Assembly (NCBI GenBank): GCA_964490365.1
Contig: CAZBAG010000001.1
Location: forward strand, 129,512 to 193,511
Reading direction: 5' to 3'
From: an uncultured Candidatus Saccharibacteria bacterium
GTDB lineage: Bacteria; Patescibacteriota; Minisyncoccia; Phycocordibacterales; CSBR16-119
DNA: 64,000 nucleotides
Shown piece after piece: positions 6,270 to 40,703 of the stretch. The position numbers and the translations under genes were made by a program. Below the pieces are notes generated by a model. The model did no database searches. It was given only the letters and a program-made list of their open reading frames with translations, and had not been told where the DNA came from. Position 1 is the stretch's first letter. Every line of letters starts with the position of its first letter.

Positions 6270-6813
6270 GGGAAATTTGATCTACTTTTTGCTGTAAATT
6301 GTTAACAATAGTTTCGTAGTCTGGAAGTTCTGACACGTTTGAAACGCCAAGATATGAGAGCAGCTCTAAGGACGGACCATACACTGAAATTCTTGAGTCT
6401 TTTGCGTCTACTGTTTTATCGACAAGGCCACGCACTTGCAGGTTTCGTAAAATAAAACCAGAATTCACACCTCGAATATAATCTATGTCAGCTCTTGAAA
6501 CTTTTTCTTTATACAAAACAATAGACAGTGTTTCGAGTGAAGCACGAGAAAGTTCTTTATTAAGTTCTTCTTTACGAAGTTCTTCAAAAAAAGAAGAGAG
6601 CTCTTTTGCGGTACCGAGCATTACCTCTTGCTCATTTACAACAAGTGACAACCCTCTGTGTGAAAGCGCTTCTCCAAGCATGGACACAGCATTTCGAATT
6701 TCCGCATCTTCAACTTTAAATGCTTTTGCCAACTCTTTAAAAGAAACAGGCTCTCCTTTATAAAAAAGAAGTGCTTCAATTTTTGCATCTAAACTAAGAT
6801 CTGTGTGTTCCAT
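6250..6813 (-). CDS. scpB: Segregation and condensation protein B
   Basis: A winged-helix repeat protein of about 187 aa, immediately downstream of scpA. Confidence 0.8.
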   Translation of the reverse strand: MEHTDLSLDAKIEALLFYKGEPVSFKELAKAFKVEDAEIRNAVSMLGEALSHRGLSLVVNEQEVMLGTAKELSSFFEELRKEELNKELSRASLETLSIVLYKEKVSRADIDYIRGVNSGFILRNLQVRGLVDKTVDAKDSRISVYGPSLELLSYLGVSNVSELPDYETIVNNLQQKVDQISHENSAV

Positions 6814-6816
6814 AAA

Positions 6817-7608
6817 TTAATTATCGTTAGATTCATCCTCACCCTCACTATGTATCTCGGTGAGAGGTTGTTGTAACTCCTGTTTTTCAATATTAATATC
6901 ACCCGTTTCGTCCTGAAAGGCTTCCATAATACCCGATCTCACTAATTCTAGCACAGCCAAAAAACTTACGATAACTGTGACTCGCTCCTCTTTTTTACTG
7001 GCAAAATTTTGCCCTTTCCAAAGATCTTTAAAGTTTGTTTTCTCAAAACTTTTCATAACTCGGTCAGTCAGATCATCAATCATTTCTTTCAGACTTTTCA
7101 CTTTTACCACTTCGACTTCTTTGAGTTTTGGTGCTCGAGGCAACGGTATTTCTGCAATGGCAGAAAAGCTGAGTTCTTTCATCAGATCTTTCGTTATGTG
7201 TTTATCAGGACTAAACACTCGGAGCTCATTTTTTTTTATAAGCTTTGGGAAAATTATTTCTTTACCATATTTTTTCTGAATATCTTGTCCAACATCTTGG
7301 ATAATTTTATATAACCGAAGTCGTGCTTCCAGGTCATCTATTTGAGTTTCTTCTTCTGTCGTCAGAGTGAGGTTTGGGAGAAGCGAACGAGATTTAATTA
7401 GAATCAGTGTTGCCGCAACAGTGATAAAGTGCGCGTAGTGATCTATTTTTTTATTTTCTAGATTTTGAATATAACGAATATAATCATCAGTAATTTCAGC
7501 CAGAGAAATCTCATTAATAAAAAGCTTTCTTTTTTCAATTAGATTTAAAAGAACCTCAAGAGGCCCTTCAAATTGAGTAGATTTTACGCTATATGGAGTT
7601 TCCGTCAC
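6817..7608 (-). CDS. scpA: Segregation and condensation protein A (kleisin)
   Basis: The N-terminal sequence EGPLEVLLNLIEKRKLFINEISLAEITDDYIRYI is typical of ScpA. The gene uses a GTG start. Confidence 0.8.
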   Translation of the reverse strand: MTETPYSVKSTQFEGPLEVLLNLIEKRKLFINEISLAEITDDYIRYIQNLENKKIDHYAHFITVAATLILIKSRSLLPNLTLTTEEETQIDDLEARLRLYKIIQDVGQDIQKKYGKEIIFPKLIKKNELRVFSPDKHITKDLMKELSFSAIAEIPLPRAPKLKEVEVVKVKSLKEMIDDLTDRVMKSFEKTNFKDLWKGQNFASKKEERVTVIVSFLAVLELVRSGIMEAFQDETGDINIEKQELQQPLTEIHSEGEDESNDN

Positions 7609-7718: not shown

Positions 7719-8063
7719 ATGGGAGAAACTCTCAACCTTACTAAGCGAATGATCTGGAACGGTCCAACGGAATTTGAACTTGTTCAATCACTCCTAAGGG
7801 GCTCTGAAGTGAATTTCTGGATCCTGTCCGAAGATAGTGATCCGGGCGAAATTCCACCAGACAACCGGCCTTGTGTCGTGGTTGGAATAGAACGATCTTT
7901 TGATGAACCAATGGAGTACCATCTTGCGGTGCAAATGATCGGACTCAAGACACCAGCACGACAATACTTCAAGTATCGGCCTCTCACCCACCAAGGTGAA
8001 TGGGTTGGATGCTTGGACATGGGTCACAAGGCATACGAGGGTCACAGCTTCCGTATGCCTTGA
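7719..8063 (+). CDS. Hypothetical protein (114 aa), GC-rich cassette gene
   Basis: G+C is elevated by eye. The product has no recognisable family. It is flanked by its own promoter and a hairpin terminator. Confidence 0.5.
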   Translation: MGETLNLTKRMIWNGPTEFELVQSLLRGSEVNFWILSEDSDPGEIPPDNRPCVVVGIERSFDEPMEYHLAVQMIGLKTPARQYFKYRPLTHQGEWVGCLDMGHKAYEGHSFRMP

Positions 8064-9640: not shown

Positions 9641-10309
9641 TTAGGCGGGCACCTCTTCGGTGAAGAACTGTTGCGCCTTGAGCGTCTCGAGCGACTGCTC
9701 GTAGGTCGAGCGCGAGCTCTGCACCAAGTTCTGCGTCCAGCGTGCGATCGCCTTCATGGTCGTGTAGAAGTAGCGCTTTGCGAGGGCTTCGTACATCTCT
9801 TCGGTGATCTCACCGTTCTTCTCGATGTAGTCGTTCACCTCCTTGAGCTTCTTCGCACTCGTGTACACGATCTTGCCGGCGTTGGCTGCCGTGGTCGCCG
9901 CAGCGATGCTGTTGTAGTGGAGTGCGTTCTGAACCTCGCTGAAAGGTTCACCTTCGCTCACCACACCAGCGGTCTCGGCGATCTCAACCACCACGATGTT
10001 GAAGGGGATCTTCTGATCCTTTCCTTTTGTCACATCGAAGCTTGTGATACGTGCCATCATCCCCAACGGGAATCCGCTCTTGGGATACCCCTGGTGCATG
10101 ACCACCCCATCCTCGGTCTTCGTGAAATCCTGGTTCTTCACGCCAGCATTCGCGAGCAGGTTATACACCTTCGGTGATGCCTCGATCTTACCGCCGAGCT
10201 TGCTCAAGCGGTTGAGTTCGTGCACCATCTCAGGGCTCACTGCCGTACCCATGACCAGGGCTTGGATGCTTCCTTTGGTCGTCTTGCTCATGTGCTTTAC
10301 CGTCACCAT
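9641..10309 (-). CDS. Hypothetical protein (about 222 aa), strongly GC-rich cassette gene
   Basis: The highest G+C in the window by eye (roughly mid-50s %). The start is ambiguous between MVTVKH, MSKTTK and MQVHIK. The product is unrecognised and Ala/Val-rich. Confidence 0.5.
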   Translation of the reverse strand: MVTVKHMSKTTKGSIQALVMGTAVSPEMVHELNRLSKLGGKIEASPKVYNLLANAGVKNQDFTKTEDGVVMHQGYPKSGFPLGMMARITSFDVTKGKDQKIPFNIVVVEIAETAGVVSEGEPFSEVQNALHYNSIAAATTAANAGKIVYTSAKKLKEVNDYIEKNGEITEEMYEALAKRYFYTTMKAIARWTQNLVQSSRSTYEQSLETLKAQQFFTEEVPA

Positions 10310-10358
10310 CCTGTATATTGGGTTTTTGATGTGAACCTGCATTGGCTCACAAAGGAGT

Positions 10359-18197: not shown

Positions 18198-18473
18198 TTA
18201 TCGGAGGGTCTTCTCTATGAAGGCTTCCACTGCTTTCAGGTGACCGTTTTTGATCGCTTGCTTTGGTGAGCACCCAAAGACAATATGGGGTGCATTAAGC
18301 CATTTCTCGAGCCACTTTTCAGGTTTTTTATCACCACAATACTTTTTTGAAAAAGCAGTGGTCAACTCCCCCGTTAAGAAGTCCTCTGTGCGATGTGGGT
18401 TTTCTTCTCTTCCGCGAATAGGAGTAACGGCTGTTTCAGCTCCGACGGTCATAAGATTCAAGTCGAGGTCCAT
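18198..18473 (-). CDS. Hypothetical protein (91 aa), GC-rich cassette gene
   Basis: The leader is ctaaaaccaaacccATGG. G+C is elevated. It has its own TTGACA promoter and terminator. The family is unrecognised. Confidence 0.5.
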   Translation of the reverse strand: MDLDLNLMTVGAETAVTPIRGREENPHRTEDFLTGELTTAFSKKYCGDKKPEKWLEKWLNAPHIVFGCSPKQAIKNGHLKAVEAFIEKTLR

Positions 18474-21993: not shown

Positions 21994-22971
21994 TTATATA
22001 AAACCTACGAGTTTTTTTACTTCGAGCATTTTCTGTTGCGCTAAAATTTTAGCTTTTTTCTCCCCTTCTTCTAGAATAGCGTAAACTTTTTCTGGATTTT
22101 TCTGCAGTTCGTCATAACGTTCTTTCATCGGTGCAAAATATGCCAACACCTTTTCAAGCAACATCTTTTTGGCATCTCCATACCCCATACCACCCTCTGA
22201 TAAACCTCTTTCCATTGCTTTTTGCTCATCTTCTGTGGCAACAAGTTTATAGAGCTGATAGATAACAACCTCTTCTGGATTTTTCTTGTCTTCTGGATTT
22301 TTCGAATCGGTTACAATACCCATAACAGCTTTTTTAATCTCATCTTCAGAACCAAACAGCGGTATAACATTTTTATAACTCTTGCTCATTTTTTGTCCGT
22401 CTATTCCTGGTACCACAGCCACTTCTTCACGAATCATTTCTTTTGGCTCCTTAAAGACTTCTCCGAAAGCTTGATTAAATTTACGGGCAAGCTCTCGTGC
22501 CATCTCAACGTGTTGCGCTTGATCTTGTCCCACAGGAACAACATCTGCGTCATACATTAAGATATCTGCCGCCATAAGCACCGGATAATCAAATGTACCG
22601 ACATTTATTTCTTTATCCTTAGCTTCTGCGTCTTTAAAAGCATGAGCACGCATAAGCCATGGCATCGTTACAAGCGTATTGAGAATCCAAGTAAGCTCTG
22701 TATGTTCAGGTAAGGTTGATTGTCTATAGAGTGTCACTTTTTCAGGATCAAGCCCGACGGCAAGATATGCGCAGATTAAGTCAAAAGACAGTTTCTTCAT
22801 TTCTTCCCTGTTTGAGATAGAGTTTAGTGCGTGATAGTCAGCTAAAAACACATGCGAATCAAACTCACCAGAGTTTTGCATTTCTACGAATTGCTTTATC
22901 GCACCAAAATAATTTCCAAGATGGAGATTTCCTGTTGGCTTAATACCAGACACTAATATTTTTTTAGACAT
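21994..22971 (-). CDS. trpS: Tryptophanyl-tRNA synthetase
   Basis: The N-terminal sequence GIKPTGNLHLGNYFGA and the motif KMSKS; 325 aa. Confidence 0.9.
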   Translation of the reverse strand: MSKKILVSGIKPTGNLHLGNYFGAIKQFVEMQNSGEFDSHVFLADYHALNSISNREEMKKLSFDLICAYLAVGLDPEKVTLYRQSTLPEHTELTWILNTLVTMPWLMRAHAFKDAEAKDKEINVGTFDYPVLMAADILMYDADVVPVGQDQAQHVEMARELARKFNQAFGEVFKEPKEMIREEVAVVPGIDGQKMSKSYKNVIPLFGSEDEIKKAVMGIVTDSKNPEDKKNPEEVVIYQLYKLVATEDEQKAMERGLSEGGMGYGDAKKMLLEKVLAYFAPMKERYDELQKNPEKVYAILEEGEKKAKILAQQKMLEVKKLVGFI

Positions 22972-23003
22972 AGCGTTATTGTAACAAAATTCACTTTATA
23001 TAC

Positions 23004-23036
23004 AAAAAGAACCCCGCTCTGGTAAGGAGCGGGGTT
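23004..23036 (-). terminator. Hairpin terminator (aaccccgctc tggtaagg agcggggtt) ending a non-coding minus-strand unit
   Basis: On the minus strand the stem is followed by tctttttgta. It lies just upstream of the trpS start. Confidence 0.55.
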
Positions 23037-23371
23037 CCGGAGCGGGGATCACCTCTGTCACGCCTTCAACTTGGAACCAAGGTAAGGTTTTGGATACATT
23101 TGAATCAGGTTAAACAAAAGTTACCCCTACATTCTGCCCACAAAAAAGACGACCATTTTGCGGGGCAGCCAAAGAACGTCTGATCGTCGAAGAGAATTAT
23201 ACGCTTCTCTTATTAAAAATGAAAGAACCCATCGCCTTGGCGATGGGTTCTCAGTTGGGATTGCAAACCCCAGGAGAACTGCGATTCTCCAAACTGCAGA
23301 AAAATTTTTTGTGCGCGTGAGGTTGAATCTAACAACAGCTGCCGCCCCGTGGCGGGATTCAAAAGAACAGG
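23037..23371 (-). ncRNA. Candidate structured non-coding RNA (about 335 nt) transcribed from the promoter at 23378..23405
   Basis: No ORF of 60 aa or more on the minus strand. It is bracketed by a consensus promoter and a terminator. It contains long perfect hairpins (gaacccatcgcc/ggcgatgggttc, ccgcc ccgt ggcgg). G+C is elevated. Confidence 0.3.
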
Positions 23372-23377
23372 AATTTG

Positions 23378-23405
23378 ACTATATCATATTTAATATATTT
23401 GTCAA
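23378..23405 (-). promoter_or_regulatory. Sigma70-like promoter TTGACA-16nt-TATAGT inside the 23.0-23.7 kb gene-free gap
   Basis: The minus strand reads gacgcTTGACAaatatattaaatatgaTATAGTcaaattcc. Confidence 0.5.
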
Positions 23406-23410
23406 GCGTC

Positions 23411-23445
23411 TATAGAAACAACAAAGGAGCCTCTAAGGCTCCTAG
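23411..23445 (-). terminator. Hairpin (aggagcc ttag aggctcct) plus T-run on the minus strand
   Basis: The minus strand reads ctaggagccttagaggctcctttgttgtttc. It separates two ORF-less units. Confidence 0.4.
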
Positions 23446-23610
23446 GTTAGAAATTATTTCTCAATCTGGAGGGGCGCGAATCTCCGAATATGCCTTGCAA
23501 GAAATGATGGGTTCTCAGCCCTATTTCCTGTTTAGATTGTGAATATAACTCCTGTGAAAGAACTATTACGGCGGTCGTGACTGTGTCATCCGTTTTACTT
23601 TTTGTTTTGG
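23446..23610 (-). ncRNA. Second candidate ORF-less transcript (about 165-190 nt)
   Basis: It lies between a TTGACA box at 23640-23645 (minus strand, with a weak -10) and the hairpin at 23411..23445. No ORF is present. Confidence 0.2.
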
Positions 23611-23644
23611 ATTTACTTTTTAAACTATTTTAAAGAAAATGTCA

Positions 23645-23682
23645 AGAAAAAAGCCAAACTCACCTTGTGAGTTTGGCTTTTT
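23645..23682 (-). terminator. Hairpin terminator downstream of the 23698..24033 gene
   Basis: gccaaactcac cttg tgagtttggc with T and A runs on both sides. Confidence 0.55.
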
Positions 23683-23697
23683 AGTAGGCACGTTGAC

Positions 23698-24033
23698 CTA
23701 CTTCTTCTTCCCGGTCTTCGTCTTGTGAGTATAGACAGATGATCGACCGAGCGCAGTAGTAAGCTGTCCGAATGGAACAATTCGAAGTCTCTTTGTTCCG
23801 AGAAGATTGGTGATGTACCGACGATCACTGCCGTCGGGCTTTGGGGACTCATCCTGATAAGGACTTGCCATGGGACGAACCTTGGCGGTAGCACAGCCAG
23901 AGGTCGCATGGTCCACACGATCATCACACTCGTCTTCGAAAAACTTGAGGATCTCAGGAGATGCCACATCTTCATCGGCACCACCTTCTTGAACAACAAG
24001 AATCTTCTTGTCTACTACTTCTGTCCTAAGCAT
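23698..24033 (-). CDS. Hypothetical acidic protein (111 aa), GC-rich cassette gene
   Basis: The leader is aaaaaaaaccaaaccaaaccATG. G+C is elevated. The family is unrecognised. Confidence 0.5.
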   Translation of the reverse strand: MLRTEVVDKKILVVQEGGADEDVASPEILKFFEDECDDRVDHATSGCATAKVRPMASPYQDESPKPDGSDRRYITNLLGTKRLRIVPFGQLTTALGRSSVYTHKTKTGKKK

Positions 24034-24078
24034 GGTTTGGTTTGGTTTGGTTTTTTTTGGAAGATCAACTCAAGCAAT

Positions 24079-24106
24079 ATTATACTATATTAATTTTATA
24101 TGTCAA
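24079..24106 (-). promoter_or_regulatory. Sigma70 consensus promoter TTGACA-16nt-TATAAT
   Basis: The minus strand reads TTGACAtataaaattaatatagTATAATattgcttg. Confidence 0.6.
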
Positions 24107-24169
24107 ACTCTTTTTCCACTCTATCCACACAGAAACTTCTCACCACATCAATATGCTAAAATCAGACCA

Positions 24170-25573
24170 ATGAGTAATCCACACACCATGCGAATACCTC
24201 CCCACAGTCTTGAATCAGAACGGGCTGTTTTAGGTTCAATCATGCTTCGCCCAGATGCGCTGAACGAAATTATCGACACCATCTTCGCCGATTCTTTTTA
24301 TGCTGAAAAACATCGGATGATTTATAAATCGATGCTCGATTTGTTTAATAAAAATGAACCGATTGATCTTCTTTCAGCTACAACAAAACTTAAAGAAAAA
24401 AACCAACTTGAAGCAATTGGTGGACGTTCGTACATTGTTGAACTCACCACGTCGGTACCAGCCTCAACAAACGTTAAGCACTACGCGCAAATTGTGTTTA
24501 AAAAACACGTCCTAAGAAAACTTATCGAGGCTGGAGAATTTATGGCTGAAACAGCTTTTGCTGAAAGTACCGATGCCGTGGAAGATATTTTAGATAGCGT
24601 CGAGAAAAAAGTATTTGCTGTTACCAACGCTGGTGGTGGTGATAAAAAGTTTGTCAGCATCAAGCAATCACTTCACGAAACATGGGAAGAAATCGAAAAA
24701 CTCCAAGAGGCAAAGGGTGGCATGCGAGGTGTGCCAACAGGTTATCCAGCACTCGATAATATTTTGGCAGGGTTACAAAGGTCAGATCTTATTATTCTTG
24801 CTGCTCGTCCATCAGTCGGTAAAACCACGCTAGCGCTCGATATTGCTCGAAATGCAGCAACTAAACACGCGGCGTCTGTGGCTATTTTCTCACTTGAAAT
24901 GAGCGCTAACCAATTAACACAACGAATGCTTGCCGCTGAATCAAAAGTAAATGCTTGGAAACTTCGAACAGGTAAACTTTCTACCGAACAAGAGTTCTCT
25001 GCTCTTCGAGACTCGTTGAACGAACTTTCTAAAGCAAAGATTTTTATCGACGACCAAGCCGGAAACTCTATTATGAAAATGAAGTCCGTTGCACGCAAAA
25101 TGAAAAGTGAACATGGGCTCGATCTAATTGTTGTCGATTACTTGCAACTTATGATGACCAGTAAAAACCACGACTCAATGGTAAACCAAGTTACCGAAAT
25201 TTCACGATCACTTAAGGGGCTCGCTCGTGAACTTGATGTACCCGTGCTTGCGCTTTCTCAGCTTTCCCGAGCCGTGGAGTCTCGTGGTGGTAAACCTCGC
25301 CTTTCAGACCTTCGAGACTCTGGATCTATCGAGCAGGACGCCGACGTCGTTATGTTTATCCACCGAGAAGACCGGGCTGGTAATACAAGATCAGATACTG
25401 AAAGTACCGGTATGACCGAAGTACTTGTCGAAAAGCACAGAAATGGACCACTTGGAAAAGCCGATCTGTACTTCGACGAAAAGAATTCAACATTTCTTCC
25501 TATTGAAAAACACATGGAAGGATACACTGCGGCCACCGAGTCTGGAGCGACTTCAGCGTTTAACGACTTTTAA
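24170..25573 (+). CDS. dnaB: Replicative DNA helicase
   Basis: The DnaB N-terminal sequence (PHSLESERAVLGSIML) and a RecA-like domain with Walker A (ARPSVGKTT). The true start is taken at MSNPHTM (24170). The tracked ORF starts earlier because it reads in-frame through the upstream promoter region. Confidence 0.85.
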   Translation: MSNPHTMRIPPHSLESERAVLGSIMLRPDALNEIIDTIFADSFYAEKHRMIYKSMLDLFNKNEPIDLLSATTKLKEKNQLEAIGGRSYIVELTTSVPASTNVKHYAQIVFKKHVLRKLIEAGEFMAETAFAESTDAVEDILDSVEKKVFAVTNAGGGDKKFVSIKQSLHETWEEIEKLQEAKGGMRGVPTGYPALDNILAGLQRSDLIILAARPSVGKTTLALDIARNAATKHAASVAIFSLEMSANQLTQRMLAAESKVNAWKLRTGKLSTEQEFSALRDSLNELSKAKIFIDDQAGNSIMKMKSVARKMKSEHGLDLIVVDYLQLMMTSKNHDSMVNQVTEISRSLKGLARELDVPVLALSQLSRAVESRGGKPRLSDLRDSGSIEQDADVVMFIHREDRAGNTRSDTESTGMTEVLVEKHRNGPLGKADLYFDEKNSTFLPIEKHMEGYTAATESGATSAFNDF

Positions 25574-25576
25574 CAC

Positions 25577-26179
25577 ATGACAAATTCTATTGAAAAACTA
25601 GCAGAGCTTTTTGAAAAATTTCCTGGTGTTGGAAAACGACAAGCAAAACGATTTGTGTATTTTTTACTGCGTAAAAATTCTGGATACAGCAAAGATATTG
25701 CCGATGCAATCTTAAACCTTAAGAAAAATATCAGACTCTGTGAAGAAAGTTTCCAGTTTTTCTATTCAGAAACTGGACAGACGCTTTCACCTATCGCTCG
25801 CGACGAACACCGAGACAGTGCAAAACTCATGGTTGTAGAAAAAGATTCTGACCTTGAGAATATCGAACGCATGGGCGTTTACAATGGAAAATATTTTGTA
25901 CTTGGTGGTTCAATACCAGTACTTTCAAAAGAACCCGCACAATATATTCGCGAAGCAGAACTTCAGAAACTTCTTGAAAAGAAAAAAGATATCATTAAGG
26001 AAATCATTTTAGCACTGAGCTTAAACCCACAAGGAGAAAACACGTTGGAATATTTACAAAAACATTTAGAAAAATTTGGTATTAAAATTTCTATTCTCGG
26101 ACGAGGCCTCTCAACAGGTACCGAACTTGAATATTCAGACAAAGATACGTTTCTTTCGGCGTTTGATAACAGGAAATAG
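25577..26179 (+). CDS. recR: Recombination protein RecR (the C4 zinc-finger cysteines are absent)
   Basis: An HhH N-terminus (FPGVGKRQAKRF) and a Toprim domain (MVVEKDSDLENIERMG...YFVLGG). The usual CxxC...CxxC positions are LCEESF...IARDEH. Confidence 0.8.
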   Translation: MTNSIEKLAELFEKFPGVGKRQAKRFVYFLLRKNSGYSKDIADAILNLKKNIRLCEESFQFFYSETGQTLSPIARDEHRDSAKLMVVEKDSDLENIERMGVYNGKYFVLGGSIPVLSKEPAQYIREAELQKLLEKKKDIIKEIILALSLNPQGENTLEYLQKHLEKFGIKISILGRGLSTGTELEYSDKDTFLSAFDNRK

Positions 26180-26180
26180 A

Positions 26181-26210
26181 AAAGAGCTAGCAGTACTGCT
26201 AGCTCTTTTT
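26181..26210. terminator. Hairpin terminator (agagctagcagtactgctagctct followed by ttttt)
   Basis: A perfect 10-bp stem. It serves the end of recR and the convergent end of the 26227 gene. Confidence 0.55.
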
Positions 26211-26226
26211 GCTTGACCACGCGTGG

Positions 26227-26634
26227 TCACAGTTTCGGCATCACCGGCTGGATGTAGGTCCCACCGTACAAGTTCCTGATCTCCAACATGTAGGTGGGGA
26301 CACCGTTCGGAAGCAGGGTAAACTTCACACCCTGTACAGCTTCCCAACCAATAGCTGAATCTGCAGAAGTGATACGCTCAAGGGTATCACGACCCTGAAT
26401 GAAGTACATCGGGAATTGAAGTGTGTCTTCTTTGTTGTACTTCACTGTTACGGTGCAGGTGCCTTTTCCTGTTTCAGGATTACGGCACTCCTCTTCCATA
26501 CCAACGATCTCCACCGACCTGCCGGCCATGTTGTGGAAATTCAACCCGACAGAGTCATTCGTAGCCTGTTGAGCACTCAGCGTGCTTGTGAATCCGAAAA
26601 CCATCGCGAACATGAGAAGGAGCTGTTTCATCAT
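26227..26634 (-). CDS. Small secreted protein (signal ...FTSTLSAQQ), GC-rich cassette gene 1 of 3 in tandem
   Basis: The start is MMKQLLLMFAMVFGFTSTLSAQ. G+C is elevated. It has its own consensus promoter. The mature part is unrecognised. Confidence 0.5.
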   Translation of the reverse strand: MMKQLLLMFAMVFGFTSTLSAQQATNDSVGLNFHNMAGRSVEIVGMEEECRNPETGKGTCTVTVKYNKEDTLQFPMYFIQGRDTLERITSADSAIGWEAVQGVKFTLLPNGVPTYMLEIRNLYGGTYIQPVMPKL

Positions 26635-26674
26635 CTGTTTGTTTGTACCCTGGTAAGAGGGTGGTTCGTTATCT

Positions 26675-26702
26675 ATTATACACAAAATAGCCTTTTTGTC
26701 AA
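26675..26702 (-). promoter_or_regulatory. Sigma70 consensus promoter TTGACA-16nt-TATAAT
   Basis: The minus strand reads TTGACAaaaaggctattttgtgTATAAT. Confidence 0.6.
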
Positions 26703-26718
26703 GTATATAAATCCAAGA

Positions 26719-26747
26719 GGAAACCCCTGCTGTGTGCAGGGGTTTTC
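26719..26747. terminator. Hairpin (aacccctgc tgtgtg caggggtt) plus T-run
   Basis: It separates tandem cassette genes 1 and 2. Confidence 0.5.
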
Positions 26748-26763
26748 TTACGTTATGATGTCC

Positions 26764-27195
26764 TTATTCAGGAACCAAGCCGGATGATTGTTCTTCTGTC
26801 GGCCAGACTTCAAAGGCAGTAACTTGTTGCCCCCCGAAGCATAGCTTCTCATCTTGAACTGAGAACATAGCCGTAGTGGCAAATTCATAGCCACCAAAAA
26901 CCTTGATAAGAAAGATAGGGGTTGTGCGAAAGTTCTCTTCTCCAACAACTCGTGGATAAAGGTAGAACTGTCCAACGACAGACTTATCCACGGCATCACC
27001 AGGAAGGAATAGTCGTGGTTTCCCCTCTTGTGTTGTGGAAACTTCGACACGTGACACATCGAACGAGATACCGCTGTGTTGCTGGTGTACAGGATTCAAC
27101 ACGTAGCCGCCATCACCAGTAGCTTTGGCATACTGAGCATTGGACATTACCGCGCCGATCAAACAGCAAAAAAGAAAGGACAGGAAAAATTTCAT
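26764..27195 (-). CDS. Small secreted protein (signal ...GAVMSNAQ), GC-rich cassette gene 2 of 3
   Basis: The start is MKFFLSFLFCCLIGAVMSNAQ. G+C is elevated. It has its own promoter. Confidence 0.5.
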   Translation of the reverse strand: MKFFLSFLFCCLIGAVMSNAQYAKATGDGGYVLNPVHQQHSGISFDVSRVEVSTTQEGKPRLFLPGDAVDKSVVGQFYLYPRVVGEENFRTTPIFLIKVFGGYEFATTAMFSVQDEKLCFGGQQVTAFEVWPTEEQSSGLVPE

Positions 27196-27213
27196 CTGGT
27201 TTTATTTTTTGCT

Positions 27214-27242
27214 ATAGTATCTAAATTTTCTTATTATGTCAA
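27214..27242 (-). promoter_or_regulatory. Sigma70-like promoter TTGACA-17nt-TACTAT
   Basis: The minus strand reads cTTGACAtaataagaaaatttagaTACTAT. Confidence 0.6.
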
Positions 27243-27243
27243 G

Positions 27244-27269
27244 AAAAAGCCCCCTCTTTCGAAGGGGCT
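27244..27269. terminator. Hairpin (gcccc tctttcgaa ggggc)
   Basis: It separates tandem cassette genes 2 and 3. Confidence 0.5.
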
Positions 27270-27290
27270 GGGAGTGTGGGCGCCGTAAAT

Positions 27291-27680
27291 CTACGGATAC
27301 CCTTGAGCGGTGTCGTCTAGGGTCACGCGCATTGCGTTTACCGGTAACTTGTCCACGTAAAGACGCTGGCCATCGAAGCTAAGGCGACCCTGGGGGTCAG
27401 GAACGAAAATCGCTCGTTCACCTTGAAGACTTTTCTTTATACGAACAGTAAACGTATGTTCGCATGAGCCAACCCCAAAGTGCACTGAGGTCACTGCATT
27501 CATTGATCCCTCATACAAGAAGATGAGGCCTATCGCCCCGTCACGATCATCTTGGAAAAGATCGATTTTGGGAGAAAGGACTTTTTCCTCCGTCACTTCT
27601 TGCACTTCTTTTTGCGCTGATACTGGGGCTGTCCAAGATGGGAACAGCACCAGAAGGCTGAAAATCTTAAGGTACTTCAT
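27291..27680 (-). CDS. Small secreted protein (signal ...SWTAPVSAQ), GC-rich cassette gene 3 of 3
   Basis: The start is MKYLKIFSLLVLFPSWTAPVSAQ. G+C is elevated. It has its own promoter. Confidence 0.5.
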   Translation of the reverse strand: MKYLKIFSLLVLFPSWTAPVSAQKEVQEVTEEKVLSPKIDLFQDDRDGAIGLIFLYEGSMNAVTSVHFGVGSCEHTFTVRIKKSLQGERAIFVPDPQGRLSFDGQRLYVDKLPVNAMRVTLDDTAQGYP

Positions 27681-27700
27681 GGTATCTTGGGTTTGTATTA

Positions 27701-27729
27701 ATCGTAGCGAAAACAAGAAGGTGTGTCAA
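27701..27729 (-). promoter_or_regulatory. Sigma70-like promoter TTGACA-17nt-TACGAT
   Basis: The minus strand reads gTTGACAcaccttcttgttttcgcTACGAT, and the leader is taatacaaacccaagataccATG. Confidence 0.55.
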
Positions 27730-27732
27730 ACA

Positions 27733-27758
27733 AAAAATCCCCTCTTGGGGATTTTTTG
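27733..27758. terminator. Hairpin terminator (aaaaaatcccc tctt ggggatttttt) directly after the rplU stop
   Basis: A perfect stem flanked by A and T runs. Confidence 0.55.
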
Positions 27759-27759
27759 T

Positions 27760-28074
27760 TTAAGAGATTTTCGCAATCTTTACTTTGAAAAATGGTTGTC
27801 GGTGACCTCGTTTTTTAAAGTAGTTACTTTTTGCTTTGTATTTAATAACAGTAACTTTATCTTCTCGGTCAATTTTTTCTAGCTTACCTTCAACTTTATT
27901 TGATACCTTTGGAGTTCCCATAGTTGTTGAAGCTCCATCGTCAACTAAAAGCACATCGTCAAAAACGATTGTGTCGCCTTCTTTGTATTCTCCAGAAAGC
28001 TTTTCAATTTGGACAGATTGTCCTTCTGAGACCTTATATTGCTTTCCTCCTGTTCTAATTACTGCGAATTTCAT
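27760..28074 (-). CDS. rplU: 50S ribosomal protein L21
   Basis: MKFAVIRTGGKQYKV matches the L21 N-terminus. The expected rpmA (L27) gene does not follow it here. Confidence 0.8.
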   Translation of the reverse strand: MKFAVIRTGGKQYKVSEGQSVQIEKLSGEYKEGDTIVFDDVLLVDDGASTTMGTPKVSNKVEGKLEKIDREDKVTVIKYKAKSNYFKKRGHRQPFFKVKIAKIS

Positions 28075-28209
28075 AACAGGGACCATTCTAACCTATTTTA
28101 AGAAAAATGCAATACCCAGATATAAGAGCCCGCCAAAGGGGTGAGATATCCCCAAAAACCCATGGTTATAAGCCTTTATTTTATAAATATACGATATAAT
28201 TTGACTAAC

Positions 28210-29133
28210 ATGATTTCTAAATATAAGCATAAAAATATCACGTGGATTGATATTGAAAAACCGACGCGAAATGAGATTATTGAAATAACTCCAGACTATA
28301 AAATCCCTAAGGTTGCAAGCGAAGAACTCCTCACTGAAACACTCAAATCTAAGGTTGATTTTTACGAAAAAGAAGAGGTAATTTACTTGGTACTTCATTT
28401 CCCTTTCTTTGATAAAAAAGAAAAAATAGTTATAGAAAAAGAGATTGATTTTCTTATTGGAAAGAATTTTTTGATTACCACTCACTACCAAGAGATAGAT
28501 TCGTTCCACACATTTGGAAGAATTTTTGAAGATAGTAGTATTCTTGAAACAAACAAAATTGGAGAAAATCCTGGGTTTTTATTTGTCTACATTCTAAAAC
28601 AACTCTATAAAACACTCGACAATGAACTTGACGGCATCGGTGTGAACCTCGAGAAAATCGAAAGTGATATTTTTGACAGCAAAGAACGAGATGCCGTAAA
28701 CAGTATTTCATATGTAAACAGAAAAATTATTCGTTTTAAAAAGGCGCTCAGTTTCCATGGCGATATCATAAAATCAGTTGAACCAATTGGCGCCGAGATG
28801 TTTGGTAGTGGTTTTTCATTTAACATGAGCATGATTGTCAGTGAATACAACAAAGTAAACAGCACTGTTGCTTGGTATAAAGAAATCTTAAACGATATGC
28901 GTGACACCAACAACACACTTCTTACGACAAAAACAAATGAGACAATTAAAACACTTACGATCATCAACTTTATCATGTTGCCTATTGCTTTGATCACGCA
29001 AGTCTTTGGTATGAACGTAAATGATGAGATCGTTCTCATTCAAACATTGCCTGACTTTTTTGTAGTTATTGGCACGATGATCCTCACGGGCCTCATTATG
29101 TTTGTGTATTTCAAAGGTAAGAAATGGCTGTAG
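28210..29133 (+). CDS. corA: Magnesium/cobalt transporter CorA
   Basis: The C-terminal TM pair carries the GMN signature (QVFGMNV). Confidence 0.8.
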   Translation: MISKYKHKNITWIDIEKPTRNEIIEITPDYKIPKVASEELLTETLKSKVDFYEKEEVIYLVLHFPFFDKKEKIVIEKEIDFLIGKNFLITTHYQEIDSFHTFGRIFEDSSILETNKIGENPGFLFVYILKQLYKTLDNELDGIGVNLEKIESDIFDSKERDAVNSISYVNRKIIRFKKALSFHGDIIKSVEPIGAEMFGSGFSFNMSMIVSEYNKVNSTVAWYKEILNDMRDTNNTLLTTKTNETIKTLTIINFIMLPIALITQVFGMNVNDEIVLIQTLPDFFVVIGTMILTGLIMFVYFKGKKWL

Positions 29134-29148
29134 TGAACAAACCTATAT

Positions 29149-30498
29149 ATGTTGAAACTTTTTAATTCCCTCACGAAAAAAGAAGAGATTTTTAAACCAA
29201 TTAAGCAGGGTCATGTTGGGCTCTATTCTTGTGGACCAACAGTCTACAACTATCCACATATTGGAAACTATCGAGCGTTTATCTTTGCTGACATACTTAA
29301 ACGATATTTTGAATACTCTGGATACGACGTGATGCATATCATGAATATCACCGATGTGGATGACAAAACTATTCGTGACTCAAACGCTCGTGGAGAAAGC
29401 TTGCTCGACTTCACAGAACACTACACAAAAGAATTTAACAAAGAGCTTGGGAAATTAAATATCAAACCCGTAACAAAACAACCAAAAGCAACCGACCACA
29501 TTAAGGAAATGGTTGCTATGACAGAAGAACTTCTTAGGAAAGATATTGCGTACAAAGGAGACGACGGCTCTATTTATTTTGATATTGCAGAATATAAAGA
29601 CTACGGAAAACTTTCTGGACTTGATCTGAAAGCTATCCAACAACACTCACAAAGTCGAATCAAAAAAGACGAATACGACAAAGAACATGCTGAAGATTTC
29701 GCACTTTGGAAAGCATGGGACGAGAGTGATGGTGACGTGTATTGGGACACACCACTTGGTCGTGGACGACCTGGTTGGCATATTGAATGTTCAGCGATGT
29801 CAACAAAATATTTAGGAAATCATTTTGATGTACACACTGGCGGAGTTGACCTCACCTTCCCTCACCATGAAAACGAAATTGCTCAGTCTGAATGTGCCTC
29901 AGGCGAACATTTTGTAAACTACTGGCTTCACAACGAGCATCTTCTTATTAATGGTAAAAAAATGTCGAAGTCGTTAAAAAATGATTACCGATTAAGTGAC
30001 CTTGAAGAACGAGGCTTTTCGGGAATTGACTATCGATACTGGCTTCTTCAAGCAAACTACCGAACGATTGTGAACTTTACGTGGGAAGGACTCGAATCTG
30101 CAAAATCAGCACTCAAAAAGCTAAAAGTGTTTGTGCTTTCTCTGGATCATCAGGGTTCTATCGCCCATACATATAAAAAAGATTTTGAGGAAGCAATGAA
30201 TGACAATCTTAACACTAGTGAAGCATTGGGCGTGCTTTGGAAACTTGTAAAAGATGAAACTGTTTCAAACGCTGATAAAAAAGCAACGCTCCTTCATTTT
30301 GACGAAGTGTTTGGACTTGGTATGAAGCACTGGAAAAAAGATGAAATTCCTGCAGAAATAATCAAGCTCGTACAAGACCGCGAACATGCACGCAAAGCAA
30401 AAGACTGGAGCGCCGGAGACCACGCACGAAGTGTTATCCAAAACCTAGGATACGATATAAAAGATACACCAGAAGGAACAGAGATTTTTAAGTTATAA
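29149..30498 (+). CDS. cysS: Cysteinyl-tRNA synthetase
   Basis: LYSCGPTVYNYPHIGNYRAF contains the HIGH motif, and KMSKS is present. Confidence 0.9.
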   Translation: MLKLFNSLTKKEEIFKPIKQGHVGLYSCGPTVYNYPHIGNYRAFIFADILKRYFEYSGYDVMHIMNITDVDDKTIRDSNARGESLLDFTEHYTKEFNKELGKLNIKPVTKQPKATDHIKEMVAMTEELLRKDIAYKGDDGSIYFDIAEYKDYGKLSGLDLKAIQQHSQSRIKKDEYDKEHAEDFALWKAWDESDGDVYWDTPLGRGRPGWHIECSAMSTKYLGNHFDVHTGGVDLTFPHHENEIAQSECASGEHFVNYWLHNEHLLINGKKMSKSLKNDYRLSDLEERGFSGIDYRYWLLQANYRTIVNFTWEGLESAKSALKKLKVFVLSLDHQGSIAHTYKKDFEEAMNDNLNTSEALGVLWKLVKDETVSNADKKATLLHFDEVFGLGMKHWKKDEIPAEIIKLVQDREHARKAKDWSAGDHARSVIQNLGYDIKDTPEGTEIFKL

Positions 30499-37210: not shown

Positions 37211-37834
37211 TCAGTAATCTCCTTCAAACATTCTGTCGAACCGCTCATCTGCGCGTCGCTGATTATCGTCATCTTCGCGTTGCTGGTCACTTACTTCTTG
37301 CATCTGATCAGCCACCTGGTCCAGAGACATGTCATCGAGCTCAGGATCTTCCTCTTCCCAAGCCCTACTTTGTTCATGACTCCACTCAAGTTGCATGATC
37401 TTGTTCGCACGACTCTCATTGGTGATCTCATGCCGAGTCCGCTTCAATACAAAGCGAGAAATCGTTGGGATATTATTTCCCTGATCATCCCACTTCGTTG
37501 AAGAGTTTACCCGGCGAACCACGATAGTGCGAGTTCCAAAGAAGTAGAACTCATCACCTTCTCTGAAGAAGGTTGCCCACGACTCGGTATTTGAGACATG
37601 GATCATGGGTCGCGGTTCACCTCGGCGGACCCTCAGAGTATCATTGAGCATCCAATGAGAGCTCACCATGGCGATCCACCAATCACTGACATCGAGATTG
37701 ATCGGAAGGCCGGCAACTTTCTTCGGGAGCACACTATCCTCGTGTTCTGTTTCAACGACCTCTCCCGCAAAGAAGTTCTTGAGACGTCCGATCAAAAGAC
37801 CCAGCACTTTATCAGAAAGAATGATCTTCTGCAT
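37211..37834 (-). CDS. Hypothetical protein with a highly acidic C-terminal tail (207 aa), GC-rich cassette gene
   Basis: G+C is elevated. It has its own TTGACA-17-TATATT promoter and its own terminator. The family is unrecognised. Confidence 0.5.
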   Translation of the reverse strand: MQKIILSDKVLGLLIGRLKNFFAGEVVETEHEDSVLPKKVAGLPINLDVSDWWIAMVSSHWMLNDTLRVRRGEPRPMIHVSNTESWATFFREGDEFYFFGTRTIVVRRVNSSTKWDDQGNNIPTISRFVLKRTRHEITNESRANKIMQLEWSHEQSRAWEEEDPELDDMSLDQVADQMQEVSDQQREDDDNQRRADERFDRMFEGDY

Positions 37835-39670: not shown

Positions 39671-40078
39671 TTATCGTAGGGCCGCCAAGGCTTCTCCAAT
39701 TTTATTGTCGCCGTCACGATCAGGTGCAATGGCGATGATCTTATCCAGAAGCGCTTCCAGTGCTTGATTAGTGCTGTACCCACCAACTGGAGCCTGGCCA
39801 TCTAGCAAGTGCCCGCCTCCGTAGAACAATTTGAGTTTACATTTGGGCACGTGAGGCTGGGCATCACTGTCTAAAAAGAATATGACTTTGATGAGGCACA
39901 TCTTTCTGATGCTGTACTGGGAGTTCAAGTTTCGAGGCATAAAGCCAAACCCTGATGGTGCATGATGATCGATACAGTAATTAACCATCACGTTTGATCC
40001 TTTCCAATTCTTCTCAACAATCGTCTTCAGATCGTGGAGCTTCAATAAGGTCACATTGTATTCGAGCATGTCTTTCAT
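39671..40078 (-). CDS. Hypothetical protein (135 aa), GC-rich cassette gene
   Basis: The leader is gaaatagaaaccaaacccaaaccaacgtaccATG. G+C is elevated. The family is unrecognised. Confidence 0.5.
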   Translation of the reverse strand: MKDMLEYNVTLLKLHDLKTIVEKNWKGSNVMVNYCIDHHAPSGFGFMPRNLNSQYSIRKMCLIKVIFFLDSDAQPHVPKCKLKLFYGGGHLLDGQAPVGGYSTNQALEALLDKIIAIAPDRDGDNKIGEALAALR

Positions 40079-40178: not shown

Positions 40179-40703
40179 CTAGCGATGTACTCTGTTTGCC
40201 CTGTAGACACTAAACATGATCACTTGGTGGAGTGTCTTTGGATCAACGAACCGTGCCCTGATGTAAGTACGGCAATTTTTTGGATGAACACCTTGTAGCC
40301 CATTCAAAAACTTCAGTTTGAACATCCGCCTATTGATCAGGTACTGATCTTCACTACTACCCACGCCACTCGGTGCTGGAGTTGTGAAAACATACTCCAC
40401 GAGTCGCATATCGGAAGGTGGAACAAGAACCTCTTCTTCTCCATGCTCGGAAGAAGAGCCATTTTGACCTTCATACACAATTGGCACCGAAGCGTTGTTA
40501 TAGAAGGTTCTATAACGCCAGCGTTTAATGCAACCTGCCTTGCGCCACATTTTACGGTCAAAGTCTCGCCACTGCTTGAATGCTTCGATGAACTGCCTCT
40601 GATGTTCAGGAGATTCTCTTGTTCCAGATTTTATAATCTGAAAAGATTCCTCTAAGAGCTTGGTCCGCAACATAACGAGCTGACGTAGTTTGTCTGTAGC
40701 CAT
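40179..40703 (-). CDS. Hypothetical Trp/Arg-rich protein (174 aa), GC-rich cassette gene
   Basis: The start context is ccaccATGG. G+C is elevated. The family is unrecognised. Confidence 0.5.
   Translation of the reverse strand: MATDKLRQLVMLRTKLLEESFQIIKSGTRESPEHQRQFIEAFKQWRDFDRKMWRKAGCIKRWRYRTFYNNASVPIVYEGQNGSSSEHGEEEVLVPPSDMRLVEYVFTTPAPSGVGSSEDQYLINRRMFKLKFLNGLQGVHPKNCRTYIRARFVDPKTLHQVIMFSVYRANRVHR

Follow-up and report, generated by a model that had tools for sequence, protein, structure and literature searches.

Between recR and rplU of a 64-kb stretch of DNA from a Candidate Phyla Radiation (CPR) bacterium, three small minus-strand genes, here designated A, B and C, are predicted to encode secreted proteins, and the question raised by this locus is where such genes came from and what their products may do. 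In the following, the whole stretch is referred to as the window, related loci are given as L and a number, and cluster-representative proteins as P and a number. A preliminary description, made from the letters of the window alone, had taken the host for a CPR bacterium and the three signal peptides for Bacteroidetes-like rather than CPR-like. As suggested by the comparative analysis reported here, the block is probably a hypervariable islet for secreted binding proteins that is peculiar to its lineage and has grown, within a single subclade of Paceibacteria, in the ancestrally tight convergent junction of recR and rplU.

Distribution of the three protein families

A RecR scan of species-representative genomes yielded 24 loci. 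At 45-91% RecR identity, 21 of 22 loci belong to metagenome-assembled genomes assigned to Paceibacterota, Parcubacteria, Patescibacteria or (automatically) Saccharibacteria, and since the relatives are of this type, the guess of a CPR host was correct. The sequence to the left of window position 1 was reached via short Logan contigs, which added 4.9 kb. Proteins A, B and C were searched for with a word index of 5.8 billion sequences and family A additionally with HMMER over 1.84 billion cluster representatives, and all open reading frames (ORFs) of the window and of 57 loci (538 kb) were subjected to a locus-wide profile search.

The word index returned for A the protein itself and two relatives with 66-69% identity, for B the protein itself and one relative with 89% identity, and for C the protein itself only. 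The profile of family A gave 11 matches among the cluster representatives, of which about 8 are genuine clusters; the A-Q signal end is found in all eight of these and six of the eight are small stand-alone proteins. P0010, P0013 and P0014 were rejected as members of family A, being long repeat proteins with summed weak repeat matches or garbage translation. With the profiles of A, B and C, hmmsearch over the ORFs of the window and the 57 loci found matches only in the gap between recR and rplU, and the independent genomic contexts of P0009 and P0016 revealed the same placement. Judged by these sequence searches, the three families are restricted to close CPR relatives and, within them, to the recR/rplU gap. 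The possibility raised in the preliminary description, that homologues would turn up as ordinary conserved CPR proteins in the same rplU context, was borne out in part, inasmuch as homologues do occur in CPR genomes in that context; they were found there and nowhere else.

Profile searches of Pfam, NCBIfam, PHROGs, PADLOC and PDB sequences assigned no family to A, B or C, in agreement with the earlier remark that the mature domains are unrecognisable. Protein A matched Pfam DUF6520 with 16.9 bits (E 0.0085), below the gathering threshold of 25.4 bits, over residues 4-73, signal peptide included. The proteins X and Y, which take part in the same gap in relatives, gave no family in PHROGs and PADLOC, nor did Y in Pfam. 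The three mature domains found nothing by tblastn against phage genomes, a viral-contig scan for family C was likewise empty, and the PADLOC defence models gave no match beyond one at chance level (E 0.028). A literature search on small secreted proteins of CPR bacteria gave nothing usable. In profile-profile comparison of the three families the signal peptides alone align, so that the mature parts are not detectably paralogous, as had been supposed, and paralogy of A, B and C was rejected on this ground. In the alignment of family B (A2) 13 columns do not vary, among them those of the motif F.P.DA..(x)..VGE..R, and the alignment of family C (A3) comprises 4 members with 30-43% identity.

Turnover of genes in the recR/rplU junction

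As shown by tblastn of the window genes against the related loci, the arrangement of dnaB and recR (forward) facing rplU (reverse) is kept down to 45% RecR identity. The coding matches of recR and rplU lie 23-39 bp apart in L022, L023, L024, L026, L029 and L030 (recR 45-50% identical), and in L021, L022, L024 and L027 rpmA is located about 2 kb upstream of the cluster corA-cysS-dnaB-recR, which separates it from rplU. No match to L27 was found anywhere in the window by tblastn with the E. coli protein. The block had been described as sitting where rpmA would follow rplU; the tight rplU-recR junction and the location of rpmA elsewhere in distant relatives contradict this, and displacement of rpmA by the block is thus ruled out. 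Judging from these gene orders, rplU has long been a lone gene in this lineage, facing recR in convergent orientation. Small genes appear in the gap only where RecR is at least 67% identical (67-91% in the relatives with the islet), and there 1-5 genes are present whose signal peptides end at an Ala-Gln junction (A↓Q). The genes corA and cysS are located downstream of rplU in the subclade of the window (28141-30498) and upstream of dnaB-recR in the distant relatives (L021-L031), a difference in position from which it follows that a local rearrangement took place before the islet arose or along with it.

The contents of the gap, obtained from ORF extraction and from the contexts of homologues, are as follows, read from the rplU side to the recR side.

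Window: C-B-A
L010: X-B-(A leader)
L009: C-A
L005-8: B-A
L038: B-A
L011: C-Y-A
L012: C-B-A-A2
L014 and L015: B-A
L017 and L039: A
L016: one A↓Q protein, unassigned to a family

Family A always adjoins recR. Between the window and L010, gene C has been swapped for X, an unrelated A↓Q protein of 129 amino acids (aa), with the rplU terminator and the B promoter as breakpoints. Since rplU and B show the same synonymous divergence in this pair (dS about 0.31) and C has nevertheless been replaced by X, whole cassettes are replaced on a short time scale. In L012 gene A has undergone duplication, and one of the two copies (6669-7466, minus strand) continues into about 150 aa of C-terminal extension (compare P0011 and P0015) in which no recognisable domain was found; this fusion indicates that the A domain can serve as a module of larger secreted proteins. 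We propose from these gene orders that family A may be the oldest resident, and that the additions B, C, X and Y entered at the rplU end.

As a separate observation, in two loci with RecR 52-55% identical a gene for a giant A↓Q protein converges on recR (L018 6676-9078, 800 aa, and L020 6682-10026, 1114 aa, both on the minus strand), with no Pfam domain above threshold in either protein. The position adjacent to recR may therefore attract genes of exported proteins beyond the clade that carries A, B and C.

Evolutionary rate and constraint

Nei-Gojobori estimates of non-synonymous (dN) and synonymous divergence, the latter being saturated for most pairs, revealed dN of 0.20-0.25 and omega (dN/dS) of 0.10-0.23 for A, dN 0.515 and omega 0.33 for C against L009, and dN 0.061, dS 0.319 and omega 0.19 for B against L010, as compared with dN of 0.02-0.08 and omega of 0.02-0.08 for recR, rplU and dnaB over the same pairs. 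The dN of A, B and C is accordingly 3-7 times that of the flanking genes, and housekeeping proteins are 77-93% identical between species where A, B and C are only 30-46% identical. In the least saturated comparison, that of the window with L010, the dS of B (0.32) equals that of rplU (0.31). The low omega values together with the excess of dN indicate that A, B and C are real genes, which are under purifying selection and yet evolve fast.

Organization of the individual genes

The islet and its conserved flanks comprise the following features.

25577..26179, plus strand: recR (Pfam Toprim_4 2.8e-12, RecR_HhH 1.5e-07), conserved flank converging on the islet
26180..26209, minus strand: 13-bp palindromic hairpin from the terminator scan, common to gene A and the convergent recR
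26227..26634, minus strand: gene A, pre-protein of 135 aa, predicted signal peptide residues 1-21 (26572-26634), cleavage LSA↓QQ, mature part 114 aa
26647..26662, minus strand: A-leader hairpin ACCCU-CUUACC-AGGGU within a leader of about 33 nt, conserved, with the loop CUUACC invariant
26675..26702, minus strand: predicted promoter A, TTGACA-16-TATAAT, 12/12 consensus
26712..26743, minus strand: gene B terminator, CCCCUGC-ACACA-GCAGGGG and a U-rich tail, read from the sequence (partial match of the scan at 26729-26714)
26764..27195, minus strand: gene B, pre-protein of 143 aa, predicted signal peptide residues 1-20 (27136-27195), cleavage SNA↓QY, mature part 123 aa
27214..27242, minus strand: promoter B, TTGACA-17-TACTAT, from the promoter scan
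27248..27269, minus strand: gene C terminator from the scan, 9-bp stem with 6 GC pairs, followed by UUUUUC
27291..27680, minus strand: gene C, pre-protein of 129 aa from ATG, predicted signal peptide residues 1-22 (27615-27680), cleavage VSA↓QK, mature part 107 aa
27701..27729, minus strand: promoter C, TTGACA-17-TACGAT, from the promoter scan
27732..27757, minus strand: rplU terminator AAAAAAUCCCC-AAGA-GGGGAUUUUUU, read from the sequence, upstream edge of the islet
27760..28086, minus strand: rplU, ribosomal protein L21 (Pfam Ribosomal_L21p 1.8e-30), conserved flank

The three ORFs thus lie where they had been placed earlier, all on the minus strand and with 135, 143 and 129 aa; versions extended to TTG codons begin upstream of the predicted transcription starts. 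The individual promoters are exactly those of the preliminary description, are the three top-scoring sites of the region and sit 11-40 nt upstream of their ATGs, and the two strands of the 64-kb window together contain only 18 sites of the form TTGACA-N15-19-TAnnnT. A TTGACA-type promoter stands at the equivalent position before most cassette genes of other species: promoter A is kept upstream of the aligned A orthologues of L005, L009, L011, L012, L014, L015 and L038, and a TTGACA immediately past the rplU terminator, as for promoter C, occurs also in L009, L010, L011 and L012. Terminator-like hairpins were found after rplU, C, B and A, in keeping with the hairpins noted earlier between the genes, and the T-run of each leads straight into the next -35 box. 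The B terminator abuts the A promoter, and the -35 box of promoter B is merged with the T-run of the preceding terminator, as it is in most B orthologues. The rplU terminator is conserved at 82-100% in L009-L012 and L015, the terminator of C is kept in L010 downstream of X, the unrelated replacement of C, and a GC-rich hairpin equivalent to that at 26180..26209 follows every A orthologue; the latter hairpin is probably a bidirectional terminator for gene A and recR. The three genes can consequently be read, as they were before, as independent transcription units, each with a predicted promoter and terminator hairpin of its own.

The leader of A carries an additional conserved element. Over 8 species the hairpin at 26647..26662 is paired in 94.9% of cells, with compensatory change in 3 of its 5 pairs, and the motif YCTCTTACCRGR of this leader occurs in one copy per locus and only in A leaders (57 loci). 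Loci whose A proteins share 30-44% identity show 81-84% identity in the leader DNA. The hairpin, which is present before all close A orthologues, may be an mRNA-stabilising or regulatory element.

The leaders of A, B and C are short, rich in A and C and devoid of a Shine-Dalgarno sequence. A motif of the Shine-Dalgarno type stands upstream of only 5 of 57 window genes (52 lack it), and because the genome lacks Shine-Dalgarno sequences and the promoters, as elsewhere in the genome, are of the sigma-70 type, the cassettes use native expression signals. Many window genes have a -10-like box only 10-20 nt before the ATG, which suggests that translation is independent of Shine-Dalgarno sequences genome-wide, with short-leader or leaderless mRNAs. 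Elsewhere in the window, a consensus promoter (23405-23378, minus strand) faces a GC-richer stretch of about 350 nt (22980-23405) without a convincing ORF in the gap between trpS and dnaB; this stretch may be an unrecognised non-coding RNA. A search of the whole window with Rfam gave zero matches at gathering thresholds and, at a permissive threshold, only terminator-like noise at 22900-24200.

Signal peptides and the A↓Q junction

The signal peptides, read by rules and with the cleavage position taken from the -3/-1 rule, end as MMKQLLLMFAMVFGFTSTLSA↓QQ in A, MKFFLSFLFCCLIGAVMSNA↓QY in B and MKYLKIFSLLVLFPSWTAPVSA↓QK in C. All three N-termini open with a charged n-region bearing Lys, continue with 12-15 hydrophobic residues as the h-region, and have a small residue at -1 and Gln at +1. 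The SAQ and NAQ ends pointed out in the preliminary description thus conform by these rules to the canonical Sec type, with a predicted A↓Q site in each protein. In the alignments, all members of family A (10/10) and of family C (4/4) have the A-Q pair, and the junction was seen in essentially every cassette protein, about 25 in total. Neither a lipobox, nor a sortase motif, nor a C-terminal membrane segment was read in the sequences of A, B and C.

Gln at +1 has been described as exclusive to Bacteroidetes (PMC5837995, PMC10653852), in which the mean Q-value is 71% as against usually <20% in other phyla, CPR bacteria lying outside that survey (PMC5837995 section 16, PMC10653852). At their predicted sites (LSA↓QQ, SNA↓QY, VSA↓QK) A, B and C all have this residue of the Bacteroidetes Q-rule. 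The same junction is found in a gene that is no part of the islet. An EnvC-like M23 peptidase (L036 3556-4863, adjoining the window on its left) starts with MLKILITTLYLLSMGLLASPQVFA↓QSV, i.e. ...VFA↓QS, and its GC content at third codon positions (GC3) of 0.33 is host-like. Its orthologues have A↓Q in L040-42 (80-86% identical) and in L047-49, L051, L053 and L057 (24-30% identical) and lack it in L045, L052, L054 and L055; the junction is kept in 8 of 12 lineages. A conserved peptidase of host composition with the same site indicates that A↓Q is native and no sign of a transfer from Bacteroidetes. This retention also hints at a Q-rule of the Bacteroidetes style in the present Paceibacteria lineage. 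Further A↓Q proteins outside the cassettes were seen in related loci (L015 11178, L018 6676, L020 6682 and L025 8489), and among non-cassette signal peptides in about 540 kb, a small sample judged by eye, about 14 have Gln and about 7 do not. One of the window's own small secreted proteins (297-530) ends VSA↓TD, without Gln at +1, and the exported proteins of the host genome otherwise mostly have uncleaved N-terminal anchors. We tentatively consider a Q-rule-like bias in a CPR lineage, as read from these predicted sites.

Predicted fold of family A

AlphaFold2 gave a mean predicted local distance difference test (pLDDT) of 42.8 with three close A sequences and, with 10 mature sequences of the family, a pLDDT of 78.5 and a predicted template modelling score (pTM) of 0.73 for an all-beta model of eight strands. 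The N-terminus is disordered over about 10-20 residues (pLDDT <50 at residues 1-9, mean 59 at residues 11-20). As modelled, family A appears to be a generic, small immunoglobulin-like (Ig-like) beta-sandwich of about 90 residues. Two Cys residues are invariant in the family and probably form a Cys29-Cys39 disulfide; a fold of this kind with such a Cys pair would suit a location outside the cytoplasm. The proteins B and C may be beta-sandwiches as well. In the fold comparison all Foldseek E-values exceeded 0.04, the resembling domains having 6-14% sequence identity. Membership in the VirB9 C-terminal domain family (VirB9/TrwF/TraO chains) is not indicated, as the identity lies in this same range of 6-14% and Pfam gives no match; nor do the genes identified up to about 2.5 kb away, or those of related loci, include any for type IV secretion.

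Base composition

The block has a GC content of 0.47-0.49 as compared with 0.33-0.39 in adjacent genes, and GC3 amounts to 0.61 in A, 0.44 in B and 0.51 in C against 0.314 +/- 0.03 in 22 housekeeping genes. Every low-GC relative shows the same, with cassette GC3 of 0.42-0.70 against 0.18-0.37 in recR and rplU and 0.34-0.43 in corA; in the GC-richer basal relatives L016, L017 and L039 the GC3 of the flanks is 0.41-0.69. Since dS is saturated between lineages, the excess must be actively maintained. Codon bias linked to expression is not the reason, for rplU has AT-rich third positions. The excess may stem from GC-biased gene conversion at a hotspot of recombination, from ongoing exchange between strains, or from selection.

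At least 8 more orphan ORFs of the window have raised GC or GC3 (297-530, 7719-8063, 9641-10342, 18198-18473, 23698-24033, 37211-37834, 39671-40078 and 40179-40703). Their GC3 is 0.46-0.79 where measured (0.79 in 9641-10342), against the host mean of 0.31, and mostly they lie between housekeeping genes directly past a perfect TTGACA promoter, so that the genome appears peppered with such islets.

Origin of the islet and competing explanations

Gln at +1 in all three proteins, which the literature calls exclusive to Bacteroidetes (PMC5837995, PMC10653852), a GC3 of 0.44-0.61 against the host mean of 0.31 and the sub-threshold match of A to DUF6520, which starts inside the signal peptide, could be taken as the foreign signature of three secreted proteins recently imported from Bacteroidetes. 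We regard such an import as very unlikely. Three word-index searches, and for family A also HMMER, found no homologue outside the Paceibacteria subclade, and the members sit only at the recR/rplU locus of CPR genomes. The promoters have the form TTGACA/TATAAT, and promoters of Bacteroidetes have a different consensus. The host-composition M23 peptidase has A↓Q across deep divergence, B has diverged together with rplU between the window and L010, as the equal dS indicates, and GC3 is high in all lineages despite saturated dS, which speaks against a recent, unameliorated arrival. The absence of a Bacteroidetes homologue, the co-divergence and the native A↓Q and expression signals hence lead us to reject the transfer, and with it the characterization of the signal peptides as Bacteroidetes-like rather than CPR-like. 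An integron-like or otherwise mobile cassette array, captured by a site-specific recombinase acting on the intergenic hairpins, would account for the modular layout with one hairpin per ORF, for the precise replacement, gain and loss of cassettes among close relatives and for the atypical base composition. This origin is just as improbable, because dnaB, recR, rplU, corA and cysS fill about 2.5 kb on each side, so that a gene for an integrase, a transposase or a phage protein would not fit in, and because the hairpins are short GC-rich stems with T-runs, as in intrinsic terminators, and unlike the imperfect attC repeats of 57-141 nt. Furthermore, a separate promoter precedes each cassette, in contrast to the typically promoterless cassettes of integrons, family A stays vertically syntenic beside recR across the clade, and neither PHROGs, nor phage tblastn, nor the viral-contig scan (family C) provided a relative.

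That the ORFs are spurious, i.e. chance frames in a non-coding spacer of higher GC, might be suspected from the long antisense ORFs on the plus strand of the block and from the lack of database annotations, and can practically be dismissed: the frames on the minus strand have kept their length and sequence in at least 10 species with omega of 0.10-0.33, contain invariant motifs and cysteines, and are accompanied in every species by correctly placed promoters, start codons and terminators, and the fold model for A is a confident one. A role in the interaction with phages is unlikely, albeit less so than the explanations above. Here the domains, secreted or retained at the surface, would mask or mimic phage receptors and the turnover would reflect an arms race, comparable to the hypervariable islands of surface genes in marine streamlined bacteria; the same rate excess and presence/absence variation would be expected as for an islet of binding proteins, and generic Ig-like folds are frequent at interfaces of phages and bacteria. 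It is opposed by the lack of a match in PADLOC (the chance-level E 0.028 aside) and to phage proteins or structures, and by the lack of an anchoring motif that would hold the proteins at the cell surface, while the present data do not separate phage interaction from host binding.

Proposed role of the predicted secreted proteins

For the favoured explanation, the hypervariable islet of secreted binding proteins, the following course may be envisaged. Each gene would be self-contained, with a preceding terminator that leads into the TTGACA -35 box, the -10 box and a short leader without Shine-Dalgarno sequence, and would be transcribed from its strong promoter into a monocistronic mRNA that is ended by its own hairpin, the mRNA of A having an additional 5' hairpin. 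The Sec pathway would export the pre-proteins and signal peptidase I (SPI) would cleave them between Ala and Gln, whereupon the N-terminal Gln would probably cyclise to pyroglutamate and confer resistance to aminopeptidases. The mature products, presumably soluble domains of about 12 kDa without an anchor, would be released outside the cell and could act as extracellular binding modules between the presumed episymbiont and a variable partner, be it the surface of a host cell, a scavenged ligand or a phage. Such a partner would explain why the proteins diverge fast and why cassettes are gained, lost, duplicated, fused and replaced among close relatives.

Several points weigh against this explanation. 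Secretion and cleavage site of A, B and C are predicted from rules and conservation. An episymbiotic lifestyle is assumed for the present organism by analogy with other CPR bacteria. The persistent excess of GC3 is not accounted for by the islet model. The divergence estimates suffer from the saturation of dS in most pairs; as omega stays well below 1 throughout, diversifying selection is not demonstrated, and relaxed constraint would yield the same omega averages.

A more far-reaching version appears possible and is held with considerable doubt, namely that this CPR lineage has independently evolved a Q-rule, with N-terminal Gln or pyroglutamate on most of its SPI substrates, and keeps at recR/rplU an exchangeable, highly expressed repertoire of secreted Ig-like binders, whose GC3 excess would stem from frequent recombination, through GC-biased gene conversion, or from continual exchange between strains. 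In this version the recR/rplU locus would be a rapidly adapting toolkit for the interface with a host or with phages.

Significance and comparison with known systems

A large part of the diversity of bacteria belongs to the CPR, or Patescibacteria, which presumably live attached to other cells and whose contact molecules are scarcely known. The locus offers a compact candidate set, three orphan families and at least two more in relatives, which are predicted to be exported and individually promoted, evolve fast and vary in presence, and its single recognisable chromosomal address makes the cassettes easy to find and track in metagenomes. Should they be confirmed genome-wide, the A↓Q junctions would constitute a Q-rule-like motif outside Bacteroidetes, contrary to the exclusivity stated in the literature, and the orphan ORFs a class of high-GC3 genes with consensus promoters scattered in an AT-rich genome devoid of Shine-Dalgarno sequences. 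On present evidence, the locus is a small hypervariable accessory islet of a known kind in an under-studied lineage, in which the families are new orphans and no new mechanism is involved.

Family A, as modelled, resembles stand-alone Ig-like domains, such as DUF3244 (PDB 3d33), the VirB9 C-terminal domain (2n01, 7o3j) and the FN3/BIg domain of an adhesin (2yn3), in fold class only, and differs from them in having neither a Pfam or PDB sequence match nor a type IV secretion context. Like the SPI substrates that follow the Q-rule in Bacteroidetes, the cassette proteins and the M23 peptidase have a small residue and then Gln at +1 wherever the signal end is clear, and the protection expected from pyroglutamate would, by analogy, also suit proteins from a "wall-less-outer-membrane" cell; in contrast to those substrates, the host and its relatives are Paceibacterota (CPR) and there is no homologue in Bacteroidetes. 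The small secreted effector repertoires of symbionts and pathogens, including the small secreted proteins of fungi, are also short, signal-peptide-bearing, orphan, fast-evolving, variably present and individually expressed, whereas the islet would depend on the Sec/SPI route of a bacterium and has no machinery dedicated to secretion in its vicinity. With the hypervariable regions of SAR11 and the genomic islands of Prochlorococcus the islet shares a fixed site between housekeeping genes, a strain-to-strain turnover of lineage-specific genes whose products are exported or lie at the surface, an atypical composition and a divergence much faster than that of the flanks. In contrast to them it has no glycosyltransferase or envelope-biosynthesis genes and is tiny (1-5 genes, 0.4-2.5 kb), being composed only of monocistronic units for small proteins, each with a consensus promoter and a terminator of its own, that occupy the convergent terminator junction of a CPR genome.

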